A model generated the notes under the pieces. The model ran no database searches. It had not been told where the DNA came from and worked only from the letters and a program-made list of their open reading frames with translations. A stretch of DNA of 64,000 nt from Marsupella aquatica (taxonomy: Eukaryota; Plantae; Marchantiophyta), in NCBI GenBank assembly GCA_973895155.1, contig OZ316891.1, forward strand, positions 13,733,037 to 13,797,036, in the 5' to 3' direction. Positions 4,793 through 64,000 of the stretch are shown here, one piece after another. The position numbers were made by a program, and so were the translations under genes. Position 1 is the stretch's first letter. Each line of letters starts with the position of its first letter.

Positions 4793-10337
<5,545 letters not shown>

Positions 10338-11627: not shown

Positions 11628-11659
11628 GACACACACACACACTCACACACACACACACA
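11628..11659. repeat. (CA)n microsatellite in the copine 5' region
   Basis: Interrupted CA run seen directly. Confidence 0.85.
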
Positions 11660-15710: not shown

Positions 15711-18147
15711 GCCTTATTGGCAAGAGGGGTATGGGATGGCAGGTAGCATAGAAGTCAACTTTAGGTAATGCAAATAAACCTGTACATAACAATTTTTATT
15801 TGAGGACTGGGTCTTAGTGTGTGTGGCTTTAAAGGGTATGCAGCCAGTAATGATGCATCCCTTTAGTGCCCATTCAAGGAAGTATGTATACATCCAGAGA
15901 AGATCAGGCTTCTAAGATCTCTCATTGTCTTCTCTTCCAATTACTAATTATAGTGAAGTACCTGTCCTCTAACCACTCTTATAGGAATTTGGAACAATTT
16001 GAGTGATAATTGAGCATCATTCAGCTGTGACTAATATAGATGGACATAGATTAACCATCATTTGCTTACAAGACTTATTGTAATCACATAAGGTGTTTTT
16101 CCTTTTGCATTGCAACAGTCAGCACTCAAAAGTGTTTGTCTGAACAAAGTGAGGTCAAGCAGTGGGACCTCAAAATCTGCAATTTATATGTAGGCTAGCG
16201 TAGTGTACTTTTTAAGGGCAACTACAAGGGAGAACGGGGATGGTTTGTGCTGTCTTGTGTGACCAAACTGTTGTTGGTCACACACCTGGTATATTTGAGT
16301 GTTGCCACAATGACCATCGATTATTGTGACCAAGTATGACTGAAAGAGAAGAAGTAGAAATAGAAAACAAAAGATACTAGGATTTACATACCTTGCCACT
16401 AAATTTTTCCTATTTATTACCATGCCACACTTTTGTTATGGGTTAAAAAAACTAACCCATGTTAGCTGCATCACATCCAATGGCTGTCATCACACCCAAT
16501 TTAATAATTAGATGGCCTGAGTCTCCCTCATTGTGACTTTGACCATCCTCAGGAGGACAAGGGCAAAGACTATGCACAGGTTTAGGCTAACATTAGACAG
16601 AGGCCATGCTTAGGTGGGGGGACAGGACTGCCCAACCCACTCCTTGGTAGATCAGCTGACCCAAGGGTGGTCAACGTCATCTCGAGGGAGATGTCACGGG
16701 CCATTTGAATACATAACTGGGTGTGACGATAGCCATTGGATGTGAAGGAGCTTACATAGGTTAGTCTTCTTAACCCACAAATAAAAAGAGTGACATTGCG
16801 ATAAACAGAAAAATTCAGTGGCAAGGAACGTATTATGACACAAAAGAGTGGCAACCTACTAAAATCCTAGATAAAATATATGGCTGCCCCAAAATCTTAT
16901 GTTATTCATATCAATGAAATTTTTTGACAGTAGACCGTGCAACATGCATATTGTCATTATGGACTACTATAGCTTTAATAGGAAATTCATTTATTGTCCG
17001 GTATTATGCACGAAAAACTGAAGACATGAGAGTGTATGTCTTAGTTTACATTTCTTAATGCGACTCAATAGGTGAAGGCATGAGGGTGTATGTTGTCATA
17101 TTTCTTAATGCGACCCGTGGTGCGCAGATCCACATAAAGTGTTCCTCTACATTATTTGTCATAACAAACTTAGCCTAGCCCCAAGCCTAGCAGTAGAAGT
17201 CTCACATCAACAAGTAAGATTCTGGGTTCAAGTTTCATTCCGCAATCAACTTAATTCCAGAAACCCTTTACACACAAAATATCCACATGAAGAAAATTGG
17301 AGGTAACATTCTTATCAGTGAGATGGAAACATGCATGATAACAACATCTATATTAAGAGTGGGACCCAAGGTGTTGTAATAAATGAGTTTCCCCCATTTT
17401 GCCCCTCTTTCCCCAATTTTTACAGCTGAAGGGGGCTAATTTGGAGAATTTATGAGCTCCACAACTATCCTCACCAACTATGTGTCGTCTCAGGTTAAGC
17501 CAACCCACACAAAAAATTGGGCGCAACCAGGTAATTAAATTAGTTTGAGGGAAAGATGAGTACTTTTGACTAGTTTGGGGATAAGCAAGTAAAGATGGGG
17601 TGAAAAAACTTCTATAATTTCTGTTGAATAATAAAAGCCATGTGAAAAATTTACTGTAATTTCTACAAGGCCAAAAGCCATCACCCCTTATAGAATCTCC
17701 ACATGTTACTGGGTTTTGTTTAGGCTATACATTTAAAAACCCACTACTGACGCATGCTAGTTTTATTGTATGATGTGAATGGGGTTGAATAAAGGGCAAG
17801 CCCACTAGTAAGTGTTGCTCTTCTCCTAAGGTGCACCAATGAATAGATCTTCAAGTTGGAAAACCCAGCAACCAAAAAGAAGTAAATTCTGTATACAACA
17901 GTCTCAAAAACATTCCATAGTGCCTCTCAAAACCAGTTCCAGTAACAAAAACCTAAGTAAACAGAATATGCAATACCATAGTTGTAAGTTGGTTTGTAGT
18001 CTTCAATCTTGAAAAATTAATTTAATTTTGTGTCAGGCTGGTCTATCTGATTGCAGAATTTTCCTAGCCAAGAAGTTTTTTAATGTAGGTTTTCCTTTTT
18101 TGCTGACACCTACCCAAAACATGTGTTTGCAACACATTTGAACAGAT

Positions 18148-21100: not shown

Positions 21101-24100
21101 GACCAAGAGGTCATTCACCTGGTTGAAAACACCCTTAAAGGGAAAATAATTAAAGAGACACTTTTCTCGTATCCCTGCGGGTTTTACATAACACAAATTG
21201 AATGCCTGCATAACAACGCCAATACAAGCGAATTGCATGCGCTATGGCATGCACGCCTTGGCCACCCCGGCCAATCAATGCTAACAATAATCATTAAGAA
21301 TTCAAGTGGCATTCCAATCAATACACGCCACATCCCAGTGAGCACTCCATGCAATGCATGCTCACGCGGCAAGTTAATAACAAGGCCCACGGCATCAAAA
21401 TTGCCAACTAAAATACCCCAATTCTTGGAAATAATCCATGCTGATGTTTGCGGGCCAATTAACCCACCAAGCGGACCTTTCCGCTACTTTATGGTTTTAA
21501 TCGACGCATCAACCAAATGGTCAAATGTGACCTTGCTTTCAACGAGGAACATGGTAATACCTCGCATTTTGACGCAAATCTTGCGCGTGAAAGCACAATT
21601 CCCAGGTCACCCTATTAAGACACTAAGGGTAGACAATGCATGGGAATTCACATCCGAAACGTTTGATGACTTTTGCACATCACTTGGCATAAACGTACAA
21701 TATCCTGTACCTCATGTGCATTTCCAGAATGGATTAGCTGAAGCGGTCATTAAATGCCTTCAGTTAATTGCATGCCCATTACTAATGCAGTCAAAACTCC
21801 CCGTCTCAGCATGGGGACACGCCATATTATAGGCGAATGCATTAATCCAATATCGCCCATCGGCATTTAATACCTATAGCCCATACCAAATAGCTAACGG
21901 TATTAAACCTAATCTATCACATCTTCGTTCATTTGGATGTCAAGTAATGGTCCCCATTACTCCACCCAAACGAACCAAGATGGGACCCCAACGACAGTTG
22001 GGGATATACATCGGATTCGACTCACCGTCCATAATCCGATACATGGAGCCCACAATTGGCGATGTTTTTAAAGCCAGATTTCTAGATTGTCATTTTGACG
22101 AACACATTTACCCACCATTAATAACCCCTAAAAACTCACAACCACCTTTGGAGTGGGAACGACACTCGCCATTTTGGCAAGACCTTAGAACAAATCAAGG
22201 GGAGAAAGAAGTTCAAAGAATTTTACAACTCCACAAGATTGTGGAAGAACTTCCCGACGCTTTCGTCAATACATCCCAAGTCAGCCGCTCACATATTCCA
22301 GCTGCGAGAGCATCTGCTCGCATCGAATTATCAAGTGAGCCAGCTAGTACATCCCAACCTCGTGCAAAATGAGGCAGACCTTTGGGATCCAAGGATAAAC
22401 AACCAAGAAGGCGCGGTTTATCTATACCACCTTCACCTGACATCGACCACACAGAATCCACAACTCACGAAGAGATTTCTATCCACTTCGCACACACCGG
22501 TGAGATGTGGGATAGAAATACTACTTCCATAGATGACGCTTTTGCATTAATGGTGGCAACAAATATCACTAATGAGACACCAGAACCAATATCCATTTTA
22601 GAATGCCAAAACAGACCAGATTGGCCTGAATGGCAGAAAGCTATAAATGGAGAATTAGATTCCCTACTAAGCAGACACACTTTTGGCCCAGTCGAGCCAA
22701 CACCGCAGGATGTACATCTTGTTGTCTACAAGTGGACATTCATCCGCAAAAGAAACGATAAAGGCCAAGTTGTACGTTACAAAGCACGTCTGGTAGGGAA
22801 AGGATTTACCCAACAACCGGGAATTCATTACGATGAAACTTACTCACCAGTTATGGATAGCACAACATTCCGATATCTTATCGGATTTGCCATTTTCCAC
22901 CAACTACAAATGCGACAATTAGATGTTGCAACTGCATATTTATATGGCACTTTAGACACTTGTCTATACATGCGATCACCTCCCGAGTTGGAGCAACGTC
23001 GCCGAGCTTTAGCTCAAGGCGCTAAATCGCATATCCCATATCTACATAAGATTATAACACAATTATCTCAAGTTACACCAAATGTGTCATCTACACATGT
23101 AACTCATAATAACGACACCGCTGTGTCAACCGTACGGAATACTCGCCGCGGACTAGCTATCCGTGTGTTGAAGGCATTATATGGCCTGAAACAAAGTGGC
23201 AGAGTATGGTATCAAAGATTTACTGATGAAATGATTGCCATGGGTTTTTCCCATGATGCCATTACACCATGTTTATTTATTAAACATGTGAATGATGAAT
23301 ATGTCATCGTTTCCATTTATGTTGATGACTTAAATATATTTGGGACACCCCAAATTACCGAAGATACTATTACACGTCTTAAATCAACATTTGAGATGAA
23401 AGACCTTGGACATACAAACTTTTGCTTAGGATTACAACTGGAGATCTTACCTACTGGCATGATACTCCATCAAACTACACAAACTGAAAAGATCCTAAAA
23501 TAGTTCAACATGAACCTAGCACACCCATTGACGTCACCAATGGTTGTACGTTCATTAGAAAACACCACTGATGTTTTTCGCAAGCGCGAAGAACATGAAC
23601 CTATATTAGGACCAGAAACTCCATATCTTTCTGCAATAGGAGCATTAATGTACCTAGCAAATCAGACTAGGCCAGACATTGCATTTGCCGTTAATTTACT
23701 AGCCAAACATAGTGCAACTCCCACAGCCAGACACTGGAATGGAGTTAAACACGTATTTAGATATCTACGTGGAACCACCGACACTGGGTTATTTTACCCA
23801 TTCGGCGCAAACCACGAGCTCATAGGATACGCAGATGTCGGATATCTCTCCGACACTGATACCGCAAAATCCCAAACTGGATATGTTTTTACCATAGGGG
23901 GTACCGCTTTCTCTTGGAAAAGCGTGAAACAGACCCTAACAACAACCTCATCGAATCACTCAAAAATATTAGCTCTACATGAGGCTAGTCGTGAAGCCGT
24001 TTGGTTACGATCATTTATAAACCACATCAACACCAAATGCGGCCTACAACCACTAACGAAGCCTACTAACATTTTTGAGGATAACGCAGCATGTATACAG

Positions 24101-24760
24101 CAGATCACAAAAGGCTTCATCAAAGGCGATCGCGTGAAACACATAGCTCCAAAGTTTTCCTACACCCACGAGCTACATGGAAAAGAGATCAACATTTTGC
24201 AGATTTCAAGTGCAGACAACTGCGCGGATCTCTTCACCAAATCACTACCGCCATCAGTCCATCACCGACACTGCCAGGCGATTGGACTACGGAGCGTGCG
24301 ACGCATGATGACCATGGAGGCTGCTGCTCCACATGATACTTGATGATATGCTGACTTGATGATATGCCGAGCCAGATGTTAAACCTAGTTTTACTATAAC
24401 TTTAACTTTATATTGACATTTACTACGACGAGGACTGTTAGGCTGCACTCTTTTTCCTTTAGCACTCATATTATTATTATTATTTTTTTCTCTGCTACAC
24501 TGGTAGAGCTTTTACTAAGCTAGAGTTGATAAAGGTTTTTTAACGAGGCAGTCTACCTCGATTGTACTTATATCATGTACCCCTATGAACATGATATAAT
24601 TTAGGTATAGTCTATGTTGTCTATATAGTTGTCACTATATATCCAAAGGGGAGTGTTAGACTCTACCTTGACCGGATGACCGGATCAGCCGGTCATCCTG
24701 GCACCACCATATGTACCATTACCGAGACTATACTGAGACCATTGTTATCACCATCAAACA
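18148..24760 (+). mobile_element. full-length Ty1/copia LTR retrotransposon, Bianca lineage (6613 bp)
   Basis: Identical 107-bp LTRs at 18148-18254 and 24654-24760 (TG...CA). TSD CAGAT at 18143-18147 and 24761-24765. PBS CGTTATCAGCACGA; PPT AAAGGGGAG. Bianca-type gag start (NLEKLNFPALDIDGSNYLEW), protease CIIDSATTHTIL, integrase HADVCGPINPPSGPFRYFMVLIDAST, RT YVDDL, RNaseH YADVGYLSD. Confidence 0.96.
19677..24343 (+). pseudogene. gag-pol polyprotein of the Bianca copia (gag, RGG tract, CCHC knuckle, PR, INT, RT, RH), disrupted
   Basis: One reading frame broken by stops at 20409 (TAA), 20439 (TGA), 21830 (TAG), 22370 (TGA) and 23501 (TAG), and by one frameshift near 21015. Confidence 0.92.
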
Positions 24761-25941: not shown

Positions 25942-26492
25942 GCCACTGCAATACATGGATGGAAGCACGGGACCAGTGGACAATAACAGCCCCTTGAAAC
26001 TATTGGGCTAGTGACAATCATAGCCCCTCAAAACTCGAGCCAGAGCTCTCGTTTTTTACGGGCATATATTATATCAGACAAGCCTTCCTTAGACATTACT
26101 CTCTCTCTCTATATATATATACAAAAACATAATTATTCAATCCTGTGGGTTTCATTCTCGTTCGAGGATCCAAAGGGATCATTTCATTGATTGCGACCCA
26201 TTTGAGTAGTGACCCAGCTCACAAGGGAAAGATCGTCCTCAAGTGAAAGCCCCAGAACGCAGAAGATCACAAAGCGTCACGACGGGAGCGATAGGATTCC
26301 TTGATCGGGGCCTCTCCCCTCCCATTCTCCACACCTCGGCCGGAAAGGGCGATGCGAGACAGAGGATTCGTTGGACGAGGAGGAGGTTTGTTGACGGAAG
26401 GGGCTGTTGGGTTTCGCTGCCTTGGAAGAATTGCCCGTTTGCTGAGCTGTTGTTGTGGAGTTGTGGAGTCGGTAGCAGCGTAGTTGGTAGCC

Positions 26493-27347
26493 ATGGTGGT
26501 GATCGCTACGGGAGTGGTGTCATCTTCGCTGCTGTCCATCGAGCACATCTCGCAATCCCCATGCGTGGCGGCGTCGTGTGTTTCGGAAGGAAAGCTACGG
26601 CAGCAGCAGGAGAGATGGGTTTCTTCGTCGTCTTCTCTCAACATTTCTTCTCGCTCAAGCAGCGTCGTCCATGCTCGCTCCACCTCTTCGCTTTCTGCAT
26701 GTGCATCTTCTCGTGATGCCGACAACTACGCGATTCGGAGGACGAATGCTATCGGGCATGGCGATGCTCGAGCTAATGCTAATCTGCCGAGGCCGGCGAT
26801 GGGTACTCGCCCGGCTGCGTTCGTCAGTGGTATCAATGCCGGGGTAGTCCATGCGGCAATTGCGGAAACTGCAGGGGAAGGGCTGAAATGGTGGGAGAAA
26901 GGGGGTGCTCCAAACATAGTAGATGTGCACAACACGGAGGAATTCGTGGAATCCTTGTCTGCTGCTGGTGATAAGCTTGTAATTGTGGAGTTCTATGCAA
27001 CCTGGTGCGGCTCATGTCGAGCACTTTATCCCAAGTTCTGCAAAATCGCAGCGGAGTACAACGATATTAACTTTTTGAAAGTGAATTTTGACGAAAATAA
27101 ACCTATGTGCAAAAGTCTGAATGTGAAGGTTCTCCCATTCTTCCATATCTATCGCGGAGCCGAGGGGCGCCTAGAGTCTTTCTCGTGTTCTCTGTCGAAG
27201 CTTCAAAGATTGAAAGATGCAATTACGAAGCATCATGATTGCGGTGAGGAGTGCACTCCTCCCGAGGAATTAGATGGTGCTCTCAGTTCTTTGCTGGACA
27301 AGACCTCAGCTGATCAATCTGCAGCAGCTGCAGGATCCTCAGAATGA
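26493..27347 (+). CDS. ACHT: Atypical Cys/His-rich (Lilium-type) thioredoxin ACHT1/2-like, probable plastid transit peptide, 284 aa, intronless
   Basis: LKWWEK...[29 protein letters not shown]...[43 protein letters not shown], with a Ser-rich N-terminus. The first ATG is at 26493; the ORF track starts at TTG 26484. Confidence 0.93.
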
Positions 27348-43078: not shown

Positions 43079-44392
43079 TCATGAACATCCAAATTCGGTT
43101 AACCCGTGATAATCCAAGTACCAATCCACAAATGTTTTGAGACCAGTGTAAGGATCGGTGGTTGGGTGGTACCCAAGCTGGGCCCTCGCGAGACTTATAT
43201 CAGCATACATGAAGGGAACACTGCCATGACTGGGCATCTCAATGACACGAACCTTAGCTTTAGCTTGTAGATGTTCCTCCAGGATGTTCAGCAAGTTGAC
43301 GATTGTCACTGGAGACGGACACCCAAGGTTAAAGGTGCGACATTGGGCACGGCTTGACTTCCTACCGCCACTGCCTGTGCTCTGCTCCGCACTGTCAATA
43401 GCAGCAACACATCCTTGCACAATATCGTCGATGAAGGTCCAGTCACGAACCAAATCGGCCTGATTGGGACCCTCGTAAATGGTGATTTCCTTCCCACGAA
43501 GAATATCTCTAGCAAAAATCCAGTATGCCATGTCTGGTCGCCCCCACGGCCCATACACAGTGCCGAGTCGTAACGTGGTGCTGGAGAGCCCGTGCGTGTG
43601 ATTGTAAACATGGACCAATCCTTCCCCTGCCTGTTTGCTAGCTGCGTAGAGACTCGCTGGCTGATCGGATCTGTCACTTTCTGAGGATGGCAATGACGAA
43701 TTTAGTCCATAAACTGAACTTGACGACGTCCACACGAAAGCCGGCTGGGGAGTTGCTCTTCTGCAGGCTTCCAGGAGAGTCACTAGCCCTGCAATATTGT
43801 TCTGGACGTACGCACCTGGATTCTCCGTGGCATTACGAATGCTGGGTTGAGCGGCCAAATGCAACACGTGAGTGCAGGGGATCATGTCAAATAGCTTCCT
43901 GAGAAGTATGGCATCGTTGATATCTCCGCGGATGACAAACACAGAACTCTTCTCCAGTATTTCCAGTCGCTCGCGCTTCAATGCGAGGTCGGAAGAGTTG
44001 CTCATATTGTCGAGTCCGACCACTCCATCACCTCTTTGTTTCAAAGCTAGACAAGTGTGAAGGCCTACAAAACCTGCTGCGCCAGTTACAAGAACTACGA
44101 TCCCTCTCTCCCGTCTCACTTGGCAAGATTGGTGCACTTTCGACATCCAATCTTGGTTTTGCCACCTCTCCTGCGCCCTGGCCTCTTCATTCAAATCATC
44201 GCGGGCCTCTCCACAGGCTCTGTTGTCTGACGAAGAATCCCCGCTGAATAGGAACGGCATGACACACGCCAAAACCACCAAAACCGAGATGCAGAGAGCA
44301 AGAAAAATTCTGTATTCTGCGCATTCTACATCACCTATCAGCCGAACCTGTCCCATGAGATCCTCGAATCCCATGACTATACTTGAAATCAT
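43079..44392 (-). CDS. GAE: UDP-D-glucuronate 4-epimerase-like (GAE family, extended SDR, type II membrane anchor), ~437 aa, intronless CDS
   Basis: TM segment IFLALCISVLVVLACVMPFLF; VLVTGAAGFVG; HVLHLAAQ; SSSSVYG; QPASLYAASK; TVYGPWGRPDMAY; FVDWYLDY. The start ATG is uncertain (44392 or 44374). Confidence 0.9.
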   Translation of the reverse strand: MISSIVMGFEDLMGQVRLIGDVECAEYRIFLALCISVLVVLACVMPFLFSGDSSSDNRACGEARDDLNEEARAQERWQNQDWMSKVHQSCQVRRERGIVVLVTGAAGFVGLHTCLALKQRGDGVVGLDNMSNSSDLALKRERLEILEKSSVFVIRGDINDAILLRKLFDMIPCTHVLHLAAQPSIRNATENPGAYVQNNIAGLVTLLEACRRATPQPAFVWTSSSSVYGLNSSLPSSESDRSDQPASLYAASKQAGEGLVHVYNHTHGLSSTTLRLGTVYGPWGRPDMAYWIFARDILRGKEITIYEGPNQADLVRDWTFIDDIVQGCVAAIDSAEQSTGSGGRKSSRAQCRTFNLGCPSPVTIVNLLNILEEHLQAKAKVRVIEMPSHGSVPFMYADISLARAQLGYHPTTDPYTGLKTFVDWYLDYHGLTEFGCS

Positions 44393-45949
44393 GCTGCCGC
44401 TTTGTGGACACACTTATGCAACATCCAAGCTACCCATCTGTTCCGCTTTCTTCGCACTGAACTCCTAAACCTGTCTCCATCATATCAAACAACATTACCG
44501 CCAGTGGAACACCCTAAGTTCTATGCCCAATTCACAGCACGAGCGAGTAGCCCTTTCACAGTCGAATCGCGGTGGGATACTGTCGCAAAAACCTGTACGT
44601 AGAATGCCGACGGTACGATCCAAGTGACAGCAATCTGCAGTTTTACAGAAAACTAAATCCATGGCAACTGCAAACTTAGCGGTCGTCGAGCAGCCTCTTC
44701 TCCATAGACCAGATTTTGTGCCGATTATTCCTGTCCCGTCCTTTCCACCGGAAGAGGCATCGACCAGAGCTCCGGCAAAAGAGCCTCTCAAAACGAGGAC
44801 GCAGGAAGCATGTCAGACGAACAAAAGGTAAGTGTAAGCCAGTGTCACCGACCAACGAAACCCGCGAGCAGAGAAGTGCCCTGCGACCAGCGAAAAAAAT
44901 CCACAAGGCTGATCTGCGGGAGGGAGAACGCGAAAAGGGAATTCTCCTTCCAATTTCACGACCTATTCCGTCAACTACGCCACCTACTGTGGGCTCCCTC
45001 TGCTCATCGAGGCGACACTGCAGGTTGAGATCTCCCGCACGTCCCTCCAGCCACGCGACCTGAAGATCATTCAAACGAGCCCGATTCGTCGGCCTGCGCA
45101 GCGCTTCTCTCGCACAGATTCTCCACAGAACTCTAGGCTGTAGCATTCTGCTCCCTCCGACGCTCGTGCCAGAAACGAACTTACAGCAACGCCGTCGCTC
45201 CGTTGTCTTCGTAATTTCGTCAGTAATGCGATTCAGTACAGTAGTGACTGTGTCGTTCGTCAGTCCACGCTCTCCTGTACATTGCATTGCAGTTATGCAG
45301 TTATGCAGTACAGTACAATGATTGCCAAAACTCGCGGGAGGGTGCCGTTGAACGATTTCCTAAACCCCTACATACAGTAATTAACGCTCTCTAAGTGCAC
45401 GCTCTTGGGAAGACGGATCTGGTATGCACTAAACCAGGTGTTGCATTCCTTGATAAACCCACACCCCCTACAAGTGCACTTATTGATGCGTGTACTTGAT
45501 TCAGATCCCTTTGTTTGAATATAATCAATAAGGGTTCACAGGGGTGTGATACCAAGTTGTGTTGGAGATCTCAGATTGAGCACCACAAACTGAATGAACA
45601 ACAAGAGGGACTCAAAACTCCCCATGCACATTGTATATGCTATATTATACTCAGACCAGATCACACAAAGAATCTGTGAAAACAAAGTGTTACTACATGA
45701 CAACATTCTGTGTCTGTCCAATGTGTTGTAAAATAAAAAGAAGAAGTGGACTACAGTTCCTACATCCAGACTACACAACATCTTCAGTGTGGACAGAATT
45801 AAAATTAAGGCCCACCCCTCAACTAAGGAGCTTCCTGGCTGGTCCACTTCACCCTTTGCTGCCTAAACATTGCATTTCCCTCCCTAAGTGCATTCATAAC
45901 TCTACTAAGAATGTGCATGCATTTATCAGTAAATGGAAATGCAATTTTT

Positions 45950-50032: not shown

Positions 50033-53000
50033 TGTGGTGCGTCCCATGGCTCCCCAAACCCAAGAAACCCCCCCGCACAAGCCGATTCCTGCAAGTTTCG
50101 TGCTCGGCGAGGCCGTTTTCGCGGCTTAGCGGCATGGGACGCTGCTAACCTCCTTCTACTACTACTATTAACATTTTACACACATATACTGGACAGATCC
50201 TTCATCGGGTCATGAGATACGTAGTCGGCCTAATCCAGGCCTTCTCTTGTCCTTCCCTCCTGTTGGTTAGGTATATTTGAATTCCGCCGCCGGAATGATC
50301 CCCAATTGGCTTGGTTAAGCCGCTAAGACCTCTCTCAGCTCGACACATCCAACTCTCACTCCCTTGCTTACTTCCTTTCTTCTACTTGTTGATGTGGGCA
50401 CTCTTCACACAAGTTAATGCGACACACAAATAGCAAAATGACTCCTTCTGACTGAGTTATACCATGCACTTGCAATACAAACAATACGTCTCATACACAA
50501 GCTCTGCAAACTAAGCCGTGAGGCCAACTCTATTCAATTCTTAGGTATGAGGAAACATGAATATACACAAGGGTCACTGTATAACTAACCGAGAGCTTCT
50601 CTTACTACTTGATCCCAGCCCTGCTGGTGCAACTAAAAACTTGCTAAAGAAGAGGCCCGAAACTCCCCGCAGCCCAGGTACTTATCCTGGCTGTGGATCC
50701 GCCTGATTCCTTGCAGCGTAAGCCTAATCTACCTACTATAATCTTCCTAACTATAATCTACCTATGTACAGCGAGGCAGGAGCACAAGTGTTGCCCTTAC
50801 CCGTGGATCCGCAATCCCACTAATCTAAGTGTCAGGGCCGTCTCCTGGTCTTGATCCTAAGTCTAAACTTGGAGATCAGCGCCCGCCCTACCCACTCACG
50901 CCTCCTACCTCCACGTCCGCCCTCCCTAAAAGGGACGGCGCCCTTACACCATCACGACATCGGTGGCTGGTCCTCAATGGACGCCCCCAACGCTTCCTCC
51001 GCAGCCATTGCCGTTGGTCCGTCCTCTGACAGATTACCTGCCGCTGACCGAGTCAACTCTTCATTGGCCTGACTGGGTCCACCCTCGGCTTCGGCCTCTG
51101 ATACGGCTACGGCCTCCCCGGCATGTTCTAGTGGAGGATCCGGTACCTCGGCTTCATTACTGAGCATTTCGGTTTGGGCCGTGACATCCCCGCCTACTAG
51201 GGTAGTTGGATCTTCTGCCGTGACCCTGCCCGTTGTTGGTGTTGGGTTTTCCTCCTTGGTTACAACGGCTTGAGAAGCCGTGTTACTCCCTGACCCCGGA
51301 GGTTTTCGCTTCTTCTTCTTCCCTGTTTCGGCAACTGGTCCCTTCCCTTTGCCACCTACCTCCGGCACCGGGGCATGTGTATCGGCTTGTCCTTTGGCCA
51401 ATACCACTCCTGGTAACGGGGTTCCCACAATTGGAGTTGGAACAGATGAAGCTAAGCATTTGAATACTGCAGCCTATTTCTTCAGCCGCTCTGTTTGATT
51501 GTCGGCCCGCCGCTGTAAGTTCTCCATCTTCCGCGTGCTTTCCTCCAACTCCTCCTGGGTCTCATCCAGGTCCTTGCGCGCCTCCTCCAGCTCCTTATTG
51601 GCTTCCTCCAATTCTTTCTTCAAGGTAGCCCTCTCCTCCTGGGTTGCTCTTAGCTCCTTGTCGAGCTCTACTACGACCACAGACTCCATCTTATTCATCT
51701 TGGCATAAGTCTGGTCGAGCTGGTCATCCTTCTCACGCAGGTCGGCCTTGAAGCTGGTCGTCAGGGATGCAAGCTCCTGCTGTAGCAGAATAATCCCTTG
51801 ATAGGATTTCCCTAACTCGGCCTCCTTCTGCTCCAGGGCTCCGCGGATATCCTCGAGCTCCCCCTTTAATGCCCTTTCCCTTCTCTGGGTCTCCGCCATG
51901 GCCCGGTTGTTGGCTGCTATGTGGGCCTCCTCTGCGTCCCTCAGCTCTTGCTTCCACTTCTCCCTCTCCTTGATTACTTTGGCCAACTCTCCTTGGGTCC
52001 GAGTCAGTTTATTCTCGATAATCCGGTTATCAGACTGTGCGGTATCCAATTGCCCCTGCATGATGTTTAGCTCATGCCGCTTAATCCGCAGCTCATCTTG
52101 GGCTTTAATTTCTTGGCCGCCTTCAGGTCTTCTACTTTGGCTTCCCTTGCCCTAAGCCGACAGATGACCTCGTCCTTCTTGCTTCTTTCCAAAGCCACCG
52201 CTTCTTCTAATTGGCGCTTCTCCAACATCTCCCTCTGAAAAAAGGGTCCCTGCTCCAACTCCTCCCCAAAGATGTTGAGTGCGAGTTCTCCACACATCTC
52301 CCCGTACTCCATGGCTCTATCTTTAGCATAGGTGGAGTAAGTAGACGTCATCGGCATCAACCACCGCGGCCTCTGCTCCCAAGCCGCCCTGCGGATTTCT
52401 TCTATGGTGACAAGAGGGTTGCTTCTTTTTTCGGCAAGCCGCCTGATGTCCTCCGGCCAATCTCCTCCTAGTAAATCTTTCTCCTTAGCTAGGGCTGCCT
52501 TCTCTTCCTCCCTAAGTCGCTCCTGAAACTCTTGTGCCGTCTGCTTTATATATGCCGTCAAATCTCGGGGGAGTAATATCTGGTGGGGGAGACTCGGGGC
52601 TACTCTGCTGGTTGGGGTCCCCTCGAACTACTCTTGGAAGCGTGGGAATAAACCGGCCACAGGTCCTTACTCCTGGAACATGATGATCCGACCCATATCC
52701 GGAGTTATTATTGCTGTAGTCCTCCACCGCCTCCTCTACTGCTTGGATTCCCGGCTTCCCCCTCTGCCCCTCTAGTGCTGCCGTGAAGATGGCCTCACAG
52801 ATCACGGGCTCTGGTTCCTCTGGTTTCCAGGCTGTCATCTCTCTCTTCTTTCCGCGGGGAGGAGCCTTTGGCTGCTCTGCCTCTGATTCAGGGCTTGAGG
52901 CTCCCACGTACATTCCTGACTTGTGTTCCGGCCTAAATCTCTCCTTGGTTCCGATAAAGGGGTTTTCCCCTTTGAGTCCGCTTAGGCCGACCTCTGGGGC

Positions 53001-54775
53001 AGCGTCCTGTATCGGTGCCATTGCCGTTGTCGTTGCCGGAACCAGTGCCGGTGCCGTTCTCTTTTCCTTCTCCAGCAATTTTAGCAGATTTTGCATGCCT
53101 GGTTGCTGCATCGGCAAGTCTTCTTTCCTTGGCCGAAACACCCGCTCGATTGTCGGACTGTCGGGCTGGTTGGGCTTCTCTGGTGCCGGCCTTTGCTCCG
53201 GAACCTTCTCCGGTGCCCTTGCCGATAGGGGAAGTACTGGGGCAAAGATTTGACTTCTGGCATACCGGCACAACAGCGGCATGTGATAGCCAAGCCGGGA
53301 CACGCTTCCCATGCCGATCACCTGCTGTTCCTCCTTCAAGATTTTCTTCAGTTGGTTGAGGAGGTACCCGTTGTAATCCCGGCTTGGGTCTGGCCTTTCT
53401 GCCAGGTAGACCTGAGCCTTGCCGATCTCTGCCCTCGGCAAGTTACAATGCATGGTCACCCGCAAGAAATCGATCATCTCTCCGATGTGCGGGTTGGTGC
53501 AGGTGTTCCGGAAGAAGCCATTCTTTGTTGATGGTCCTGGGAACGACCGGAACTCCTTGTCAGGTAAGGTCTTCCTGGTATCAACCTTGGTCTTATTACC
53601 CATCGGCAAGCCAAACACCTCGGCAATCACCCGGGGAGTGAGATAGAAATCCTTCCCATACACCCTCGTGGAATTGGTCTCGGGTTCCCATGATCCCACG
53701 AATTCTAATAAGTCTGAGTCCGGCACCTCCGGCTTCAGCCATGGTAATCTTACGAAGGCTTCCAAGCCGGATCCGGCCATGAAGCCCTGGTACTTCTTGG
53801 TCTGCATGGCCGTAAAGCATGCATCCTCCTCCCGTGCAAAGTGTAATTGCACTTCCTCCGGTAGGGTCGCCGCCCAGCCTTTCCAGGTGTCATCGTTTGT
53901 TGGAATGGCATTGATAGGATCAACCTCTTCCTCTTCGGCTTCTCCCTGCCTCCTGCTCTGCTGCTCTGCTGGCTTCCTAGGTGCCGCCGACCTTGTTCTT
54001 TTTGCAGGGGTGGCCTCTTTGTTGTTGTTTCCTTTCCTCTTCATCTCGGCTGCCGTGGATGTTTCTCCTAGCAAGGTTGCCTTCGTCCACCCCTCCGTGT
54101 TACCCTTCAACTCCCAGTGTAGGTCGTTGCAGCGATTGATGGCTTCCCGGATGCCGACGATTCTGTTTTTGCAAAACAGAAGGTCGTCGAGCTGATTGGC
54201 AGTAGGAGTCCACAAGAACTCGGCCTTGATAAGTTCTCCTCCTAAGAAAGCCGTCTTCTGCAGTTCCCAGAGCCGAGCGAGCTCCTACCATTCTCGAGCT
54301 GCTCTCTCCGATTCTTCGTCCTCGTAAGTCCTAACGTACTCACTTGCCCATTCGAACAGGCATCCCCAAAAATGTGCTGCTTGATTGACGTTGCTCATAC
54401 CCTCCTTGAGTCGATCGTTGGTATCTGTTCCCACCTAGAGTGCTTGCCTAAGCAGCTGACAATAGTTGGTCTCCCGTAGTCGTCTGCCCAGTTCGTGCTT
54501 GCAAATGAGCCACCATTCCTCGCGAGCGGTCCTTACCCCTCTCCTCCTCTGGTCTTCCCTCCCGTTGGTCACCCCTAGCCGCCGACGCTTAGCGCGCCCT
54601 AACCCTAATCGTGTTCTCTCCCCCGGCGTCCTTACTTCCGGCCTCGGCCCACGTTCCATAGTCACCCTTAATTGTTTATATTTTCCTTGTTTTTGTTCCT
54701 ATACTAAGGTGTTTCCAGGGTACACTCCTGCTTTACCATGTAAACCGGCCTAGTGATTCCTGGCTAGGCATCACA
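50033..54775. mobile_element. 4743-bp integrase-type insertion (TG...CA, 5-bp TSD) without terminal direct repeats; giant solo LTR or deleted Gypsy (Tat/Ogre/Athila-like) derivative
   Basis: TSD CGGTG at 50028-50032 and 54776-54780. Termini TGTGGTGC / GCATCACA. No gag/pol motifs seen. Confidence 0.8.
50952..54659 (-). pseudogene. ~1230-codon accessory ORF: plant mobile domain (PMD)-like region + low-complexity linker + long coiled coil
   Basis: ORF-track pieces 54435-54665, 52512-54215, 52067-52561, 51474-52061 and 50952-51428 join via 3 in-frame TAGs and 2 frameshifts. EFVGSWEPETNS...LTPRVIAEVFGLP resembles the PMD motif W.PET...T...V...LGLP. Confidence 0.65.
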
Positions 54776-56878
54776 CGGTGCGCAAATGTATTCCAGAACC
54801 CACGCTGCAAAAACCAGCGAGAGAAGAAAAAACAAGCCCTAAGGGCGACAACAACACCATCACACCAAGGAGCCCAAGCCAGGCCACCATCACGCCGCAA
54901 CATGGCATCACAACAAATGAGGCACCAAGGCGACTAGCAGACTTTGGGCCTCAAGTGGATCTGAATCAACCAGCGGTCAACCGGAAGACAGTGGGTCCAA
55001 ACACTAGCCGAGAAAGTCAGGAACCAGGTCCAATAGATCCAGACATTGAAGTCCCAATGACTCTCGATACTATAACACTCATGCATCACAAAAGCTCTAT
55101 TCTTGTGAGCAACACACGGACTATAAGTCACAATCTCAATCATTCTACTTTTGCTACTCCTGTAGTTGATCACAAGGCTGAAACTAGCCTTGTCATCATC
55201 CCGGTCATCATCAAGACTAAGTTTCTCTAAGTAATGGTAGCAGTGAAGGCCTAAAGTAGTATAAATCGCATGCATGGGTAATATTGTCAGGGGTAGTAGG
55301 AATCCTATTCAGAGTATGACGGATCATAACAGTGAGTTCAGTCAACGTCCTCTGTAGACTCCGTGCTAAATGGTAACATTTTTTGTGCGTTGCATAGTAG
55401 CATGAACATTCACAATGGCCCCATGAAGAATGAGTTGCAGGGGGAAGTGAGTAGCATTATCCTGGTAGGTGCGTTGTCGTCTTTTAATCCAATGCTATGT
55501 ATCATCTGATGGATGGTGAGGAGAAATCATGGGTTTCTCTCTTGTGATCGGATGGCAGTGTCAACTTTTCCAAAGAAGGGACAGCCAATAGCCTTATGCT
55601 GCCCAGTACCTACAACAGATAGTTCAAGCTGATTCCATCTGGTCTGCAATCTAGGGCACTCAAAGAACATGTGTTCAATAGTTTCAATCTGCTCATGACA
55701 TGCAGTGCACTTCCTGTCACCAACATCCCACTTAAGAGCCCCAAAATTGGAAAAGAATCCAGCATTGAGTACCTTCCAAAAATCTAATTTGACATTAGGG
55801 GAAGACCAGCCAGACCAGAGGTGAATCCACCGCCTTTGCCAGGTCTCAGGAGAGTCCAGAGAGAACCACCTCCTATTGAGTTTCTCAGTAGGTGTGGAAT
55901 GTTGTTGCAACATCAAGGCCCAAGTTCGAGTCTGAAGAGTCCACCCTGTTTTTCCTCCTTAGTTTGGTCCATCTCCAAATCCACCCATTGGTGTTGGTCA
56001 AAGTGTCAATAGTGGGTCCCCGAGATCTGTGCAAAATCTCCAAAACAAGTTGCACCAATCGTAGTGCATTGCTTCTGGTCGATCTCACGGCTCCCTGAAA
56101 CTGCTCATTAGTCTTCCATCCAAAGTCTTGAGTAATCAAGTCAGCAACAATAAAGATTTTTCTCGTTGCCATGAAGCTTTTGAACTCATGTTTCTCTCTG
56201 TCTGTACTGTCATTCAGCTGCCGGCCTGCTTATGAGAAGAAGTAGCCGCTCAATAGATAGGTGGATAGGGATGTTCCCAATGGTGACCTCAAAGTGAAGG
56301 TTTCTGTGAGTAGATTCTCATCCTCTAAGCAAACAATTAAAAGTAGGAGCTGAGGCATTTTTAATGCTTGGGAGTAGAAGGAGGACGTTGCTGGGATCCC
56401 ATAACTTGCGCTCTCTCTTATGTGGGCCCTTCCTAGCATTCAGTCTGATCAAGGACCTTGCCATGTGAATCCACGCAGTGTCGAATCCACTTAGTAGCTT
56501 GGTGACGCTGCACATTTTGCAGGCCTGAGCTTGTAGAGCAAAGGGCCTTATGGCTAGGTCTCCCTCCGCGCCTCAAAGGGTCGGGTGATTGTGTCCCATG
56601 CAACAAGAGCAATTTTGTCAGCTCTAGGGGCACTCTTGCCCCACAAGAAGATTCTGCAGAGTTTTTCCAGCTGCTTGTATCCAGTTTTTTGGATGTTGAG
56701 CAACATAATATGGTAGATAGGAATAGCCCTAAGCACATGCTTAAGTAGGACCAGCCTCCTAGCTTGGGTGAGGGTTCTGTTGGTCTAGTGCCTGAGTCCT
56801 TTCTTGACTTTACCAAGTAGGAATTCAGTTTCCTGGTGAGGCCTTATTTTATTACCGATTGGACAACCAAGGTAGGTA
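54776..56878 (-). mobile_element. LINE (L1-clade) 3' fragment: RT C-terminus, zf-RVT, 3'UTR; degenerate
   Basis: YLGCPIG (~56875-56855), HVLRAIPIYH...CRIFLWG...LVAWDTITRP, FWKVLNAGFFSN...CTACHEQIETIEHMFFECP. Frameshifts and stops are present. Confidence 0.85.
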
Positions 56879-58104
56879 CACTACTACATATTTGCCATTT
56901 TTGCGAAGGTCAATTACAAGGGGATAAACGCACCGCAAAGCGCCATTCATCGCTCATCTTGCGATGCAAACCGCATCTCAAACTGCGACACTGACACTCT
57001 CGCAACCATTATTTGCGAAACCAACATCTTCGCAAATATTTGCGAAACCAAATATCTCGCAAAATGTTTCTGAACCTTTGAGCATTCTACTTAGTACCGA
57101 TGTTTACCGTTTCGCAAACAACTTGCGACGCCGATTGCATTGATAACGTTGCAATATTTGTGTTATCGGAAATCGGCGTGCGATGCAAAATTAATCGCAA
57201 TACAGTGAAACTAAGAGAATCGCTAGTTTGAGAGGTGGTGTGGCTCGCAAAATCATGGCGCCTTAGTGGTTCTCTTTAGAGAAGGCTTGAGTTTTGGAAA
57301 GTTGAGATGCGCGTTGCTTCGGAATGTAGCGATGGTTTTGGGATGGGATCTAGCAATGAGGTAGGGATCGTTAATGTAGCCATTAGGTTGAGATGGGTGG
57401 GGGTTCGCAAAATGGTTCGGAAATTTGGTTTTGGGGTTTGTCAGATTTAGAAAGGGCATGGGACAAGGAATGGAGGGAGGAGGGTCAAGGAGGGAGGAGG
57501 GAGGAGGGAGGAGGTACACTTTAGGAAGAAAAGGAGGAGGAAGGGTTGACTTAAGGGGGGACAAGGAACAAAGGGAGGAGGGCGGTTTAGGGTGCACAAG
57601 GAAATGAGGGAGGAGGGAGCGTTCCTACCTACAGTTTAGGGAGGGAAAAGGAAAGGAGGGAGGAGGGAGGGAGGGTGGAAGGTATAGGTTTAGGAGAGGG
57701 ACAAGCCAAGGAGGGAGGAGCATAGGTTGAGGACAGTGAAAGGTGGAAAAAATTGAGGGCATGTATAGGTTTTAAAAAGGAAGGGGTTGAGACAAGGGGA
57801 GGAGGGAGGTGGGTACAAGTACTAGAGAGAAAGGCTAGGGGGTGGGAGAAGGAAAGCTACGAGGAGGAATGACTACAAGCGACATGAGTTTTCTTTTCAT
57901 AAAGTGTACCAAAAGGTGTGGGAGTGTACATAGGACTGTGGGGATGGAAGATGTAAAAAAGCCACATTTAAAATTGATATACTTACAAGATTGATTTGGG
58001 CAAACATAAATTTATTAATAATTTAGAAACACATATTTCTCCAACCAAGAAGAGAGATCCTCATATGTTCAAATCTAACTATATATCCACATTACATATA
58101 CCCC

Positions 58105-61100
58105 TCAAACTTGGTCCTCATCCTCTTCAGGTTGGGACACAACCAGAATATCTGGCTTTTCCCCAACAACTGAACGAGATCGTGGCACATATGTGATGAC
58201 AAGTGACCATTCCTCTAGGTTTGGGGGGTATGAAATATAAAAACATTGTTCCACATGACTTGGAAAAGTGAACGGCTCCGATGTTTGCCAATGAGATGGC
58301 TGGAAACTAGTGGCAGATGTCTTTAGCCATGTAAATCCACGTGCACACTCATCTTGAAGCACGGTGGGATTGTTACCTGCAAGGTTCACTTTGAACCACT
58401 TGCACTTGAAGACATAGTCTTCAAACTTTGATTGTGCATCATAAGAGATCACTAGGATCTCCTCTATCTTTCCATAATGTGGCACAACATCTCGAATAAT
58501 ATTTGTGTCATGGCGATTGCTGCGGGAATCTTGAGAGAATTGTCCTTGAACTCCACAATCAAAGGTACGACCCCTCTTCTCATCAAGGAAAAAAACCCTA
58601 AAATCCACCAAACCATAAGGACATGTTACAAAAATAGGCATAACCATATAACAATTAATATCACATGCCAAAAAATTGTCTCTTCAATATATGTGGGTGT
58701 ATTACACATAAATTAAAATCACCATAGATGAAAGGTTACTAAGGTACTTGGAAATAACCTGAAATGTCTCCCTTGTGTCCACATTGCCGTCCTTGTTGTA
58801 ACCATTCTCAAGGGACCATGAACAATGGTACGGACATCATCTGTGATAGCTGGAAAATGTAATAATTCTCTCCCCTCGCTACCATGTCATCCACCTCAAC
58901 CAACTTCTCCTTCATGTAGTCATGGTACTTTGGAAAGATCCTTGGTCTTCTACTGGTACTTATGGCATCCTCATAGAAATCCCTCCATTCTTCCATGATA
59001 GTGTTGTTACTCAACATGAATGTGGTTAGTTGTTTCAACTCCACTGGTGTCAACATGCAGGTTTTGATAGCACCTGTTAAACGATCCTCCTCATCTTCCC
59101 TCTCCTCTACCCAAGTACGGGGAGAGGTACGATCAATTGTGGCCAATATGTTACTGCAATAGAACATACTCTCTGCTGCCAAGTATCCTGTAGCCATGCT
59201 TCCCTCAACTCGTGCCCGGTTACGTACATAACCCTTTAATACTGCCATGTACCGTTCCAACCAATACATCCACCGACAATGCACAAGACCAGCAATGGCC
59301 ACCTCATGAACAAGATGAACAAGTAAATGCACTTGGCAATCAAAAAAGGAAGGAGGAAGGGCCTTTTCTAACTTGCATACCACCTCTGCTGCCAGTACCT
59401 CCATTCCCGGGATCTCTTCACAGTATATCTCCTTAGAACATACCCATCTCAATAGTTTTCCCAATGACCAATGGCATCTTGCACTTCTGAACTTGCCAAA
59501 CCTATAATTATGGCCACGGGCAATATATGTTGCAATAACCGATGATAGTCATGCGTCTTGAGATACATTGGCCACTTATGATTGTCCTCCATCCCAAAGG
59601 CCTTCCGAAGATTGGCACCATAACCAGTAGGAAACCGCATGCCTCCTATGCGATTCCTAAACTCCCTTCTCTGGACAACAGGAAGCACCCATGGGGCTGA
59701 AGGTCGATGTTCTATCCGTGTGATAGGATCAATTGTGACCCATACATCTGGATGCATCTCAAGATCCTCACAAGCCTCCCTGAAGTTAGTGTCATTTTCT
59801 CCATAGAAAGCCTTTATCAAAGCCTTTCCCACATTTCCCTCAATGTGCATGGGGTCTAATAGATGGCGGATCTTCAACTCTCCCCAATAAGGCAAAGTGG
59901 TTAATATACTCCATCTAGTCAACCCGCTACCCTCAAATTGCATGGGATCCTCCGGGTTTGCCACTCTATCAGCCAAGTCTTTCCAATGTGCAAAAGTTGT
60001 TGGCTCTGGTATATCACGTTCATCACCAAAGGGCATATCAATGGAGGAAAATAGTAGTGGGTCAAACCTCATCTGATGGCCCATTGGCAGAAACTTTGTA
60101 TGCCCAAGATAAACAATCTTGTGAAGGTGTGATGAGTACTTGGCTATATCACCAAGACTTGGGCCACAAGTGGAGCAAGCCTTGTAGCCTTGGGTTTGCA
60201 ACCCACTCACAAAGCCAAATCCTGGTCAAATAGACACACATAATGTAGAATTAGCACATGGAAATGATGGGATAACATGCATTATCATATCATGCTGGAT
60301 GTAAACAAAAAAAGTGTCGTAGTTTCATAGTTCTTACCTGGGTAGTCATGCATGGTCCACATACAAACCCCTTTTAGTTAAAAAACCCGTGGGGTACCCC
60401 CTGTAGTCTTTCGCCCGTCATATGCCCATATTCCATCCCATAATTTTTGGAGTTCCTCAACCACTAATGCCAAATAGGTGTCCATGTTCTTCACCTTCTT
60501 TGGCCCTGGGATAATCAAAGATAGCAATAAAAAGCCCTTTTTCATGGACAACCATGGTGGAAGGTTGTAATTCATGAGAACCACCGGCCAAACTGATGTA
60601 GGTCTCCCCTTCCCTCCAAGTGAATGAGGGCTAACCGCATCTGATGCCAACCCAAGTCGCACATGCCGAGGGTCACGCTCAAAATCTGGCCATGTTGACT
60701 TCACATGTTTATGAGCAGGAGAGTCAACTGGTAATCGCATCACACCGGGCTCCGAACGATGCTTCTTGTGCCATACCATCAACTCGGCCAAGTCAGAACA
60801 TCTATACATGTGCAACAAGCAAGGAATAATGGGGAACCAACGAACTGCTTTTCTTGGCACCTTCCCGGTTAGCATGTTTGGGTCATACCGTGGCTCATGA
60901 CATACTGTGCATTCTGTCATATGGGCTTTGTCCCCATGAAATAATATGCAATCATTCACACAGGCATGAATGATATGGTAATCCATGCCAATGGATGAGA
61001 GAATCTTCTTTGCATCCTTCCAAGTTCCAGGCAACACATTCTCCAAGGGTAACATCAAGTCATGACAATATTCAAATATGTCTGATAACATAGAATTGCT

Positions 61101-62926
61101 TGCCTTATGTTTGGCCTGAATGTTCAACAACCCCAATATGGCTGACAAACGACTCAACCGAGCACCCTCAAAGATAGGTGTCCGGGCATGTTCCTCAGCC
61201 TCCTTCCATTGTTGTTGTCCCTCTGGAGTATGTTGTGGTCGTGGGTCATTTTGGGGGGCAGCTCCTTCAACACTAATGTCAGGGACACCATCTTCAACAT
61301 CAACACCAAACCAATCAACCATGAAGTCATCCATGGCTCTGTCCTGGTCATGCATGACCTGGTCATCAGTCTGAGGTGTTGCTTCCTCATCACCATGATC
61401 ACTTACATCATTACTTGATGAGGAATCATCCTCTGATGGTTCTCCCTCTTCTGGCATGCCCATCTCCCAATATGCTACTCTCAACCTTCGTGGTAACATT
61501 TGTTGAGATGGTTGCACATTCTACGCACGACACAACCAAAAAACCTCTTGATGTATATTTCACCAGGTACAACAAAAATAGACTTCAGACCATTCATTCA
61601 AGACAAATTAACAATCAGTTTTAAGGATTGATTGCATGCATTCACATTAAGAACTTAAGTGAAGGGCCACACCAAAATTATACTACTCCAAAATGAGGCC
61701 AGAGGACATGTATATAATGAAAAGTGTGAAGTACACACAAGGTACAAGAGGATGTATGACATGGCTCCCTAATCCCACTCATAGTGTGTGAATAACTCAT
61801 CTCCAGCTCTAATAGTCCTAGTGGCAAGAACTAAGCAATGGTCCTTATGATATGTCGTTCCATATGGTGCCGGCATTGGGCCATCAGTAAAAACCCACTC
61901 ACAATTGGCCCTACGCTTGGGTCGAGTCCCCACAGTACTATTTATAAAGCGAGCAATATTCCCATTACGTACGGGATCACCGTCTATCACCCGCTGCTCA
62001 CTATACCTTCTAGTGCTACCATGAAAAGTATCCATCTCTAGGGCATATGTTTTCCACTCAGGATGTTGTGCAAGGATCATGTTCCAGTGTCTTCTCTGAC
62101 TTGTAGATGGGTCCACCATATGGGAACAAAGTAGGACCCTCTCTACCACGAGCACTTGACCCACTCCCATCATCCATGATGATATCCTCACAAGCAAATA
62201 CTCCATATCCGTGTCTCTCTCCAAGTGTGGAAGCTTTCACAATCCAACGTCTACCCCAAACCACAATCTCCTCATCATAACCGGGAAAATAAGGCAAGCC
62301 AAGAGTCATAGGATCCCAATCTTTGATGATAGAGGCACACTTGCCAGTGAATGAACAAATGCCCCACCTACCCTCAACTAGTGTTCTTGATGGGTCATTG
62401 GGTGCTCGTGGCCTCCTCTTGGACTGGGGCCTGGACCGGGGTCTTTGTGTCTCAGTGGGCACATGAGACTGTTCCTCTTCAGTCCCATGATTGGTACTGA
62501 TCCCTACACCCAAGGCTTGTGAAAGTGCATTGCCTATAGCATCTAAAACTCCTTGTGATGGGACATAGGGTGGTGGTGTCACCGGTCTACGCATACTGGA
62601 TCCCTATTCCATGCAAAAACCCACAAAAAACCATATGTGTAAACATTGATTCACTTATGAAAATATGAGGGAAAAAAGGCAAACAATTGAAATCCATGTA
62701 CCATATGGGATGAAGAAGCCCCCGGAGTAAGACCCCTGTGACGTCCATATCTCTCAATATGTTGAGCACACACATAAGATTTTTGAGAAACTTGGCCCAC
62801 ACATCTGGTGCACTCACAAAGTCTCCGGGGAGGACCACGAGGACCGGTAACCTCAGGTTGAGGAGGAGGGGGTACATCATCGGAGGAGGAGTACTCACTA
62901 CTGGATAGTTCGGGGGAGGATGACAT
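58105..62926 (-). pseudogene. CACTA transposase (TnpD-like: transposase-associated Zn motif, Tnp_21, DUF4218, DUF4216), disrupted
   Basis: Inferred exons 62926-62702, 61520-60338, 60221-58759 and 58597-58105. Motifs: CECTRC...HIERYG, IHACVNDCILF, RLGLASD, SVWPVVLMNYNLPPW, WTMHDYPG, RHLLDPMHIEGNV, LKTHDYH, PPSFFDCQVHLLVHL, RWMYWLER, FKCKWF. A TAA at 60378 and frameshifts near 59500 and 58860 disrupt it. Confidence 0.9.
61769..62603 (-). pseudogene. SET-domain protein exon inside the CACTA element (one frameshift near 62095)
   Basis: WIVKASTLGERHGYGVFACEDI ... LFPYGG ... YALEM ... IDGDP..NGNIARFINS ... ANC ... LATRTIRAGDELFTHYEWD*. All canonical SET motifs are present in order. Confidence 0.88.
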
Positions 62927-64000
62927 ATCCACTGCCACATTACATTGCATGTAGGGCATGATTAGAATCCCTCTCGGCCAAAAAATATCCTAAAACTAAA
63001 CTACAAAAACCCTTTTTTGTTTAGCATGAAACCCAAAGGAGAGTGTCATGCACAAAAATATCACATTGTCACCCTTGGGAAAATTGTAATGGTCTAAGCC
63101 CTGAATTAGGTTAGTGAATTACCTGAATGAGACCCGGGCTCAACAGTGCCTATAGGTCGTGTGGCTCAATGAACATGAGCCAAATCTAGAAGTAGAACAG
63201 AAAGCCTTAAAGGATGGGTCCAAGGCCTTAATTCTCTTTTTCAAAATTTTCTGATTTTCCAAAATGTCATAAAAAAACAACACAAAAAATCATCATATAT
63301 TTAATATTTCCTGACCTTGGACTTTCACACCATAATTAACACAATGCTTTAGACACAAGTTTTTTCATAATTAATATTTCCAATTTGACTCCTCAATATA
63401 AGTCTCAACATTGGAGTTTGGGCTCAAAGATCACCAACAAATTAAATGTTACAAGAAAATATCCTCTTTATGAACAAAGTCACTAACAACATCAGAGATC
63501 AGAAGCCTTCACCCATCACAAATCAACACTCAATTGCCCTTGGCAGCCTATGTTTAATCGCTAATTGCCCATGGTCCTATACCCTTTACGGGTTACATGT
63601 TGTCATTTTGTCCATCGCAGCTGGTCGCAACTCGCCCATTGCAATGTGCCTATCATAGCTCACTCCTGAGCTCACTCATCTTCCATCATGGATTGTTGTT
63701 ACCCAACTTTGCCCTTTGCCTTTTAAAAACCTAAGCTTAGTGTATTCATGAAGCTTGTGCATCCAAAAGCTTCATGAATTCATGAATCCTGTTTTCAAGA
63801 TTCTTTAATCTTGATCCAAGATTCTTTGTCATGAATTCATGAAGGGAATCTGGCATCAAGTTTGGGAATCTTAAAAAGAGAGAAAAATTGCATACAAACA
63901 TAAAGAAAATAATTAAAAGAAAGGTTACTCAAGACAAAGAAAATGACAAAAAAAGGAACAAAAAATGATTCAATTAAGACAAAAAGAGTTATGGATGAAG

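Follow-up and report, generated by a model that had tools for sequence, protein, structure and literature searches.

Within the window (the whole 64-kb stretch of DNA analysed here), the minus strand from 63185 to 56879 contains most of one CACTA transposon, a member of a bryophyte family in which a short coding exon with a Cys/His module, here called exon 1, stands before two in-phase partners, a SET exon and a transposase exon. We document this layout, its phase-0 splice signals and their conservation, the Pfam identities of the SET and transposase parts and the mobility of the family. In intact copies it is likely that exon 1 would be spliced either to the SET exon, as a captured alternative last exon, or to the transposase. 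One coding exon with two in-frame partners is what the earlier note had proposed, and for the family the proposal is supported by conservation in three lineages and by a weak but specific match of relatives to the Pfam family PF13963. The join of exon 1 to SET appears in predicted gene models and that of exon 1 to the transposase is predicted from DNA only; for the copy in the window, which is dead, the proposal fails.

The element belongs to the CACTA class. In the transposase frames Pfam identifies PF02992 (Transposase_21, E 2.1e-32) and PF13960 (DUF4218, E 3e-32), together with PF13952 (DUF4216) at E 5e-06, below the cut-off of that family. Three minus-strand exons carry these domains. The one opened in phase 0 by acceptor 2 (60338..61520) has a conserved Met at 61499, an acidic linker, a Cys cluster and PF02992; the next (58759..60221), with two frame changes, holds the remainder of Transposase_21 and DUF4218; and the last (58105..58597) is DUF4216-like. 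Relative to the window near 59620, locus L057 has about 145 extra bases in the transposase (13104-13248), probably an intron of the Sphagnum-type copy that is absent from the window.

The 3' end of the element (56879..57430) consists of a terminal CACTACTACA, read on the plus strand at 56879, and subterminal repeat families at 56955-57430. Compared over 12 bases with the corresponding repeat at the 3' end of L057, this terminus agrees in 11. The 5' end of the window's element falls outside the window, and no second copy lies within the 64 kb. Among relatives the shared 5' end is CACTACAACA, which has differing flanks in 15 of the 17 long loci listed, two of these sharing one flank. L057 carries both CACTA-type ends, with one mismatch in the 3' pentamer, and a 3-bp target duplication, ACA, on both sides of 6542-16434 (the single element with both ends); an alternative 3' end at 17420 was dropped for 16434, which has the duplication. 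The start at CACTACAACA with differing flanks, the two ends of L057 and its duplication thus identify mobile CACTA elements of about 10 kb. No TnpA-type accessory gene was found downstream of the transposase. Sphagnum-type copies also contain a multi-ORF, probably spliced gene that runs from exon 0, described below, toward the 5' end (L057 7550-9200, L019 7870-9400, and L018, L034 and L015, on the minus strand of the loci). Its product combines a stretch rich in Lys and Glu with a helical, Trp-containing part, the latter being reminiscent of TnpA/Myb-like DNA-binding proteins; the gene gave no informative Pfam match and was not detected in the window.

Scanning metagenome contigs with an exon 1 alignment yielded 66 loci, 65 of them Sphagnum-like and one, L029, representing a third lineage. 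The SET part is found in 24 proteins at 73-86% identity, the named organisms being Sphagnum species and the liverwort Calypogeia fissa. Viral contigs gave no match to the transposase; three matches of 33 residues in such contigs were set aside, being unconfirmed by tblastn.

Alignment of the window with L029, L057, L034 and L011 reveals a conserved non-coding 5' exon, exon 0 (63123..63185, minus strand). It is 63 bases long, has stops in all three frames and is bounded by the acceptor TCTAG|ATT and the donor CAG|GTAATT; the likeness of relatives' contigs ends at 63120, near its 3' edge. Because exon 0 is conserved upstream, exon 1 is the first only among the coding exons and not, as the earlier note had taken it, the first of all. 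A conserved motif lies just before the exon 0 donor, within 63123-63185, and a similar motif precedes a second possible donor near 63315, as if exon 0 had been duplicated. Within exon 0 itself, both the window and L029 contain a short upstream ORF. The predicted intron 0 (62932..63122, 191 nt) has an identical join in gene model P0093.

Exon 1 itself spans 62702..62931 on the minus strand, with its ATG at 62926, 225 coding bases (75 aa) and a phase-0 end at 62702 with the donor ATG|GTACAT. Intron 1 (62604..62701, 98 nt) runs from the shared donor GT at 62701 to acceptor 1, AATAG|GGATCC, which opens the SET exon at 62603 in phase 0. The SET exon (61769..62603, minus strand), a predicted alternative last exon, is followed by an AT-rich spacer (61521..61768; 248 nt, 63% AT) that ends in acceptor 2, CGTAG|AATGTG, and the transposase exon starts at 61520, again in phase 0. 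We predict that the spacer comprises the SET 3' UTR and the 3' end of a long intron. The 60 bases preceding each acceptor are 44-46% T. The positions of exon 1, the donor and both acceptors had been given correctly in the earlier note.

The same cannot be said of the claim that acceptor 1 opens the SET frame. In the window copy the frame from 62603 stops after 181 codons at 62058, short of the SET core, and the Pfam SET match lies in a different frame at 61769-62236 because of a 4-base insertion at 62096-62099. The insertion is missing from all seven aligned loci and from contigs in each of eight runs, where 2-100% of the depth is without it; 23 of 24 SET proteins cross the site in one frame and the 24th begins after it. 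In the transposase frame there is a premature stop at 60380-60378, with later frame changes near 59500 and 58850. The window copy is dead, and neither full protein can be made from it. The shared-exon layout is real at the level of the family; it does not hold for the copy in the window.

The identity of the SET exon rests on PF00856, which matches the window frame at E 2.2e-07 (31.7 bits against a cut-off of 22.4). Three of four intact relatives pass the cut-off and one stands at 21.7, and the Atlas clusters closest to the SET part are SET proteins. SET catalytic motifs are GxG, YxG, N-H-x-C and ELxxxY. The family keeps GYGVFA, PYGG and GDELFTHY, and in most rows has N-S at the N-H position, with Ser where His is usual; no post-SET cysteines were found in the SET alignment. 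AlphaFold2 gave no confident model of either the complete Zn-SET protein or its SET part alone (mean pLDDT 34 and 35), and a PDB sequence search with P0001, A2 and A5 returned no matches at E<=10. A conserved segment before the SET core (window 62380-62250), with GRWGxCxFTGKC followed by W-rich strands, is without a Pfam match.

Synonymous divergence between the window and other lineages is 0.7-1.3. Nei-Gojobori estimates of dN/dS come to 0.07-0.17 in the 3' part of exon 1 (62845-62702, compared with four other copies), roughly 0.22 in the SET core and 0.09-0.11 in the transposase exon. They derive from 4, 4 and 3 pairs respectively, and since every pair includes the window, the pairs are not independent. 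On these ratios exon 1, SET and transposase are all under purifying selection.

PF13963 is normally N-terminal in CACTA transposases. Exon 1 encodes a Ser/acidic/Pro-rich leader and then the Cys/His module, a likely zinc-binding motif C-x-C-x2-C-x13-H-x4-G (62744..62818, minus strand) in which three Cys and two Gly are invariant in 20 of 20 rows and the His is kept in at least 90%. The earlier note had matched this motif to PF13963. A direct match is not borne out: the window exon hit no Pfam family at E<=10, and PF13963 was likewise missing at that threshold from ten further exon-1 sequences. For 4 of 16 exon-1 relatives, PF13963 was the sole and top family among 24,736 (E 0.025-0.14), scoring 13-15 bits (best 15.2) against a cut-off of 27.7 and covering profile positions 31-63 of 74. 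As the family had been named in advance and came out on top, the match speaks for a distant relationship that falls short of the Pfam cut-off, and supports reading the module as a divergent PF13963 relative, not a member. Pfam detected no PF13963-like module in the transposase exon. A predicted complex of exon 1, transposase residues 90-380 and two zinc ions scored 0.00 with alignments unused, and the zinc module had no usable match in Atlas. In a poplar element, according to PMC8455832, a separate PF13963 ORF lies about 850 bases before the Transposase_21 ORF. We infer that the coding sequence of the ancestral transposase may have begun with exon 1, as a PF13963-like exon.

Turning to the splice sites, an AG that opens a frame of more than 60 codons lies in T-rich, non-coding sequence at only two places between 62701 and 61300, namely the two acceptors. 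A phase-0 YAG coincides with a stop codon, and an in-frame TAG is therefore partly built in, so it is conservation that has to carry the argument. Three lineages retain the donor and both acceptors, while the spacer between SET and transposase is hardly alignable between them. The donor GT of exon 1 is found in 55 of the 56 sequences that reach the site, the exception, L066, being an internal deletion. That deletion (L066 3174-3656) removes SET and most of the transposase: exon 1 breaks off midway and continues directly with the last part of the penultimate transposase exon. Val, encoded by a GT codon, directly follows the end of exon 1 in all 18 read-through ORFs, down to 35% identity (full HMMER search, 20 proteins, aligned with others). 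Contigs of relatives cease to match at 62699, 3 bases into intron 1, in at least three of eight runs, among the loose ends listed. Some of the contig pieces listed from these runs continue across the acceptors, and neither predicted junction is among the joints listed; such contigs bear neither on expression nor on splicing. Most relatives have the donor GTAAGT, and in three runs GTACGT occurs in every contig covering 62697, which makes the weaker donor of the window copy a late change. Scored with a plant weight matrix, the element's clear donors reach 4.7-6.9 and exon 0 reaches 6.6; exon 1 scores 2.8 in the window and 4.9 in most relatives (mean 4.5, range 2.8-5.0). Between the exon 1 donor and acceptor 2, no phase-0 GT common to all lineages scores above 0.7. 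As the SET exon and spacer offer no conserved in-phase donor, acceptor 2 would be fed by exon 1 or by exon 0.

Acceptor 2 reads TAG|AAT in all eight sequences that reach it (the window, six Sphagnum-type loci and L029). In the seven that cover the transposase Met it lies in phase with this residue, 7 codons (once 6) upstream, and the sole indel in between is of 3 bases. The intervening peptide keeps N-V/I-x-P-S despite third-position changes, P0034 retaining PSQ. The adjoining spacer, by comparison, is 139-248 bases long, 63-72% AT and 19-29% identical across lineages, a figure lowered by length differences; in one contig from another organism the match is lost in the spacer and resumes at 61521. 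If, as in En/Spm, it is exon 0 that is shared, being spliced either to exon 1 followed by SET or directly to acceptor 2, the transposase would start at the Met seven codons in, without a zinc module. Exon 0 is indeed conserved and has the strongest upstream donor, and the MLPRRLR Met occurs in the window, six loci, P0034, P0036, P0040 and P0041. Such an arrangement would, however, leave the PF13963-like module on the SET protein only, and explains neither the phase between acceptor 2 and the Met nor the kept peptide before it. We prefer exon 1 as the shared exon because of the relatives' PF13963 match, the module-free transposase exon and the ORF order in poplar, and regard sharing of exon 0 as improbable.

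As to acceptor 1, among 12 exon-1 proteins, all predicted gene models, eight have the acceptor 1 join, three are read-through ORFs and one is joined elsewhere; none joins exon 1 directly to the transposase (the search covered 15 candidates, and long proteins can be crowded out of it). Gene models with the acceptor 1 join carry the names of several Sphagnum species and of C. fissa. The junction peptide of P0031 almost equals that of the window, whose lineage is closest in this peptide to Calypogeia proteins. Across lineages intron 1 shows 56-65% identity, most of it within the final 45 bases, and conserved intron sequence beside regulated exons is common. Of 32 Sphagnum-type copies, 6 no longer have the acceptor 1 AG; for all ten TAG sites counted the figure is 24 of 283, a total that includes the acceptor 1 site itself. 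Since acceptor 1 is lost no less than other TAG sites, the losses reflect decay in dead copies and give no sign of selection within the lineage.

These losses speak for another reading, in which exon 1 belongs to the transposase only and SET is a nested passenger that is skipped or started from its own Met; most copies do have a Met within 3-5 codons of acceptor 1, the point at which many gene models begin (263 aa). Against this, acceptor 1 and the intron sequence preceding it are conserved across lineages, P0006 is without a Met after acceptor 1, the 98-118 bases between exon 1 and the SET exon leave little room for a promoter, and SET is under purifying selection. We accordingly give a passenger SET very little credence.

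A third possibility recalls SETMAR/Metnase, a domesticated host gene in which SET and transposase are joined by splicing into one fusion protein; the bryophyte element differs in being mobile and in having mutually exclusive predicted products. Use of a donor within the SET exon, yielding a Zn-SET-transposase fusion, is the least credible reading, with only the slightest chance of being right, for although two predicted Sphagnum gene models (P0032 and P0093) do reach the transposase from inside SET, they use two different acceptors and remove the SET C-terminal motif, the donor T|GTGAGT is in phase 1, out of phase with acceptor 2 and missing in L029, and the SET stop codon is in the same place in all eight aligned sequences.

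In the favoured model, with exon 1 as the shared exon, transcription would begin at one promoter and run through one or two non-coding exons into exon 1. Use of acceptor 1 and of a 3' end in the spacer would give a Zn-SET protein of about 345 aa; skipping of SET and splicing of exon 1 to acceptor 2 would give a Zn-transposase. Since the SET transcript would end in the spacer, each transcript would make one product or the other. The SET exon may have been captured into the first coding intron of the transposase, borrowing its start codon and module. The two junctions at the RNA level, the capture and the 3' end in the spacer are all what the sequence leads us to infer.

It is tempting to speculate on what such an arrangement would do. 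Our committed guess is that Zn-SET would be an accessory lysine methyltransferase that keeps the element active on chromatin, with splice choice setting the ratio of Zn-SET to transposase. More tentatively, and with doubts that outweigh our confidence, the shared module might, as the earlier note proposed, steer SET to the element's own copies or to the transpososome; its marks might then keep the family active. The arrangement would then be an exon-swap switch, in which the zinc module of the transposase serves as an address label and splice choice toggles between self-editing and jumping.

Transposon-borne SET genes and alternative splicing in CACTA elements are both already in print. For maize En/Spm and for EN/SPM3 and 7 of Arabidopsis, passages of PMC13547354 and PMC2613891, and further of bioRxiv 10.64898/2026.08.24.746577 and PMC1636069, report that TnpA and TnpD arise by alternative splicing; PMC4158355 added nothing on exon 1. 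According to these passages En/Spm resembles the bryophyte element in being a CACTA transposon with one transcription unit, a transposase plus an accessory protein, and a non-coding 5' exon. The accessory protein of En/Spm is, however, the helix-turn-helix DNA-binding TnpA, which is transposase-derived, whereas in the bryophyte element it would be a SET enzyme, probably captured and encoded ahead of the catalytic exons. Furthermore, the bryophyte products would share a coding Cys/His module, and the En/Spm passages describe none. The parallel that the earlier note had drawn with En/Spm thus holds for alternative splicing and breaks down over the large ORF, which in En/Spm lies inside intron 1, and over the shared protein module.

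For the SET cargo, a close precedent lies in red-algal Plavaka (EnSpm) elements, whose accessory gene PAG2 includes SET PF00856 (bioRxiv 10.1101/2025.02.11.637652, in part). Here too SET is carried within the EnSpm/CACTA superfamily; as described in the passages seen, PAG2 is nevertheless a separate gene with an additional DNA methylase domain and no shared exon, and the transposase lineage and host are different. SET genes are also reported, with a proposed anti-silencing role, in Phytophthora HarbingerS and MuDR families and in Helitrons (passages of PMC12730594 and bioRxiv 10.1101/2025.02.11.637652); these belong to other superfamilies and are described there as accessory genes. Neither the bryophyte family nor a coding exon common to a SET protein and a transposase came up in the literature searched; Repbase lay outside the search and may describe the family. 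The phrase 'SET domain' is absent from the text of PMC9946827 and PMC12513842.

The relationship between the moss and liverwort elements raises a further point. P0004 and P0006, one from each group, are 62% identical over Zn-SET, and each is 82% identical to the window SET core. The synonymous divergence given above seems low for the moss-liverwort split. For so old a split, such values make horizontal transfer between moss and liverwort possible (window against L034, L056 and L029; P0004 against P0006).

Elsewhere in the window, plus-strand positions 19638-24343 hold a gag-pol interrupted by stops, presumably a Copia-type retrotransposon. We take 26484-27347 (plus) and 43079-44413 (minus) to be host genes, for a thioredoxin-like protein (WCGSC) and a UDP-glucuronate 4-epimerase-like protein respectively. 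The minus-strand segments 50952-54284 and 55527-56843 hold long coiled-coil and low-complexity ORFs without a convincing Pfam family and, immediately next to the 3' end of the element, what are presumably LINE-like remnants.

For Sphagnum, these findings bear on gene annotation. One 'SET domain-containing protein' cluster from Sphagnum has 360 members, and many gene models so named are probably transposon cargo, not host genes. According to a portion of PMC9946827, CACTA is the most abundant classified repeat in Sphagnum, at 6.8%. For the family itself, insertion into an intron would be a cheap route to a chromatin enzyme, with promoter, start codon and N-terminal module all borrowed. Zn-SET would thereby be a candidate for anti-silencing in bryophytes, and the element may give access to the uncharacterised Cys/His module that CACTA transposases carry at their N-terminus.
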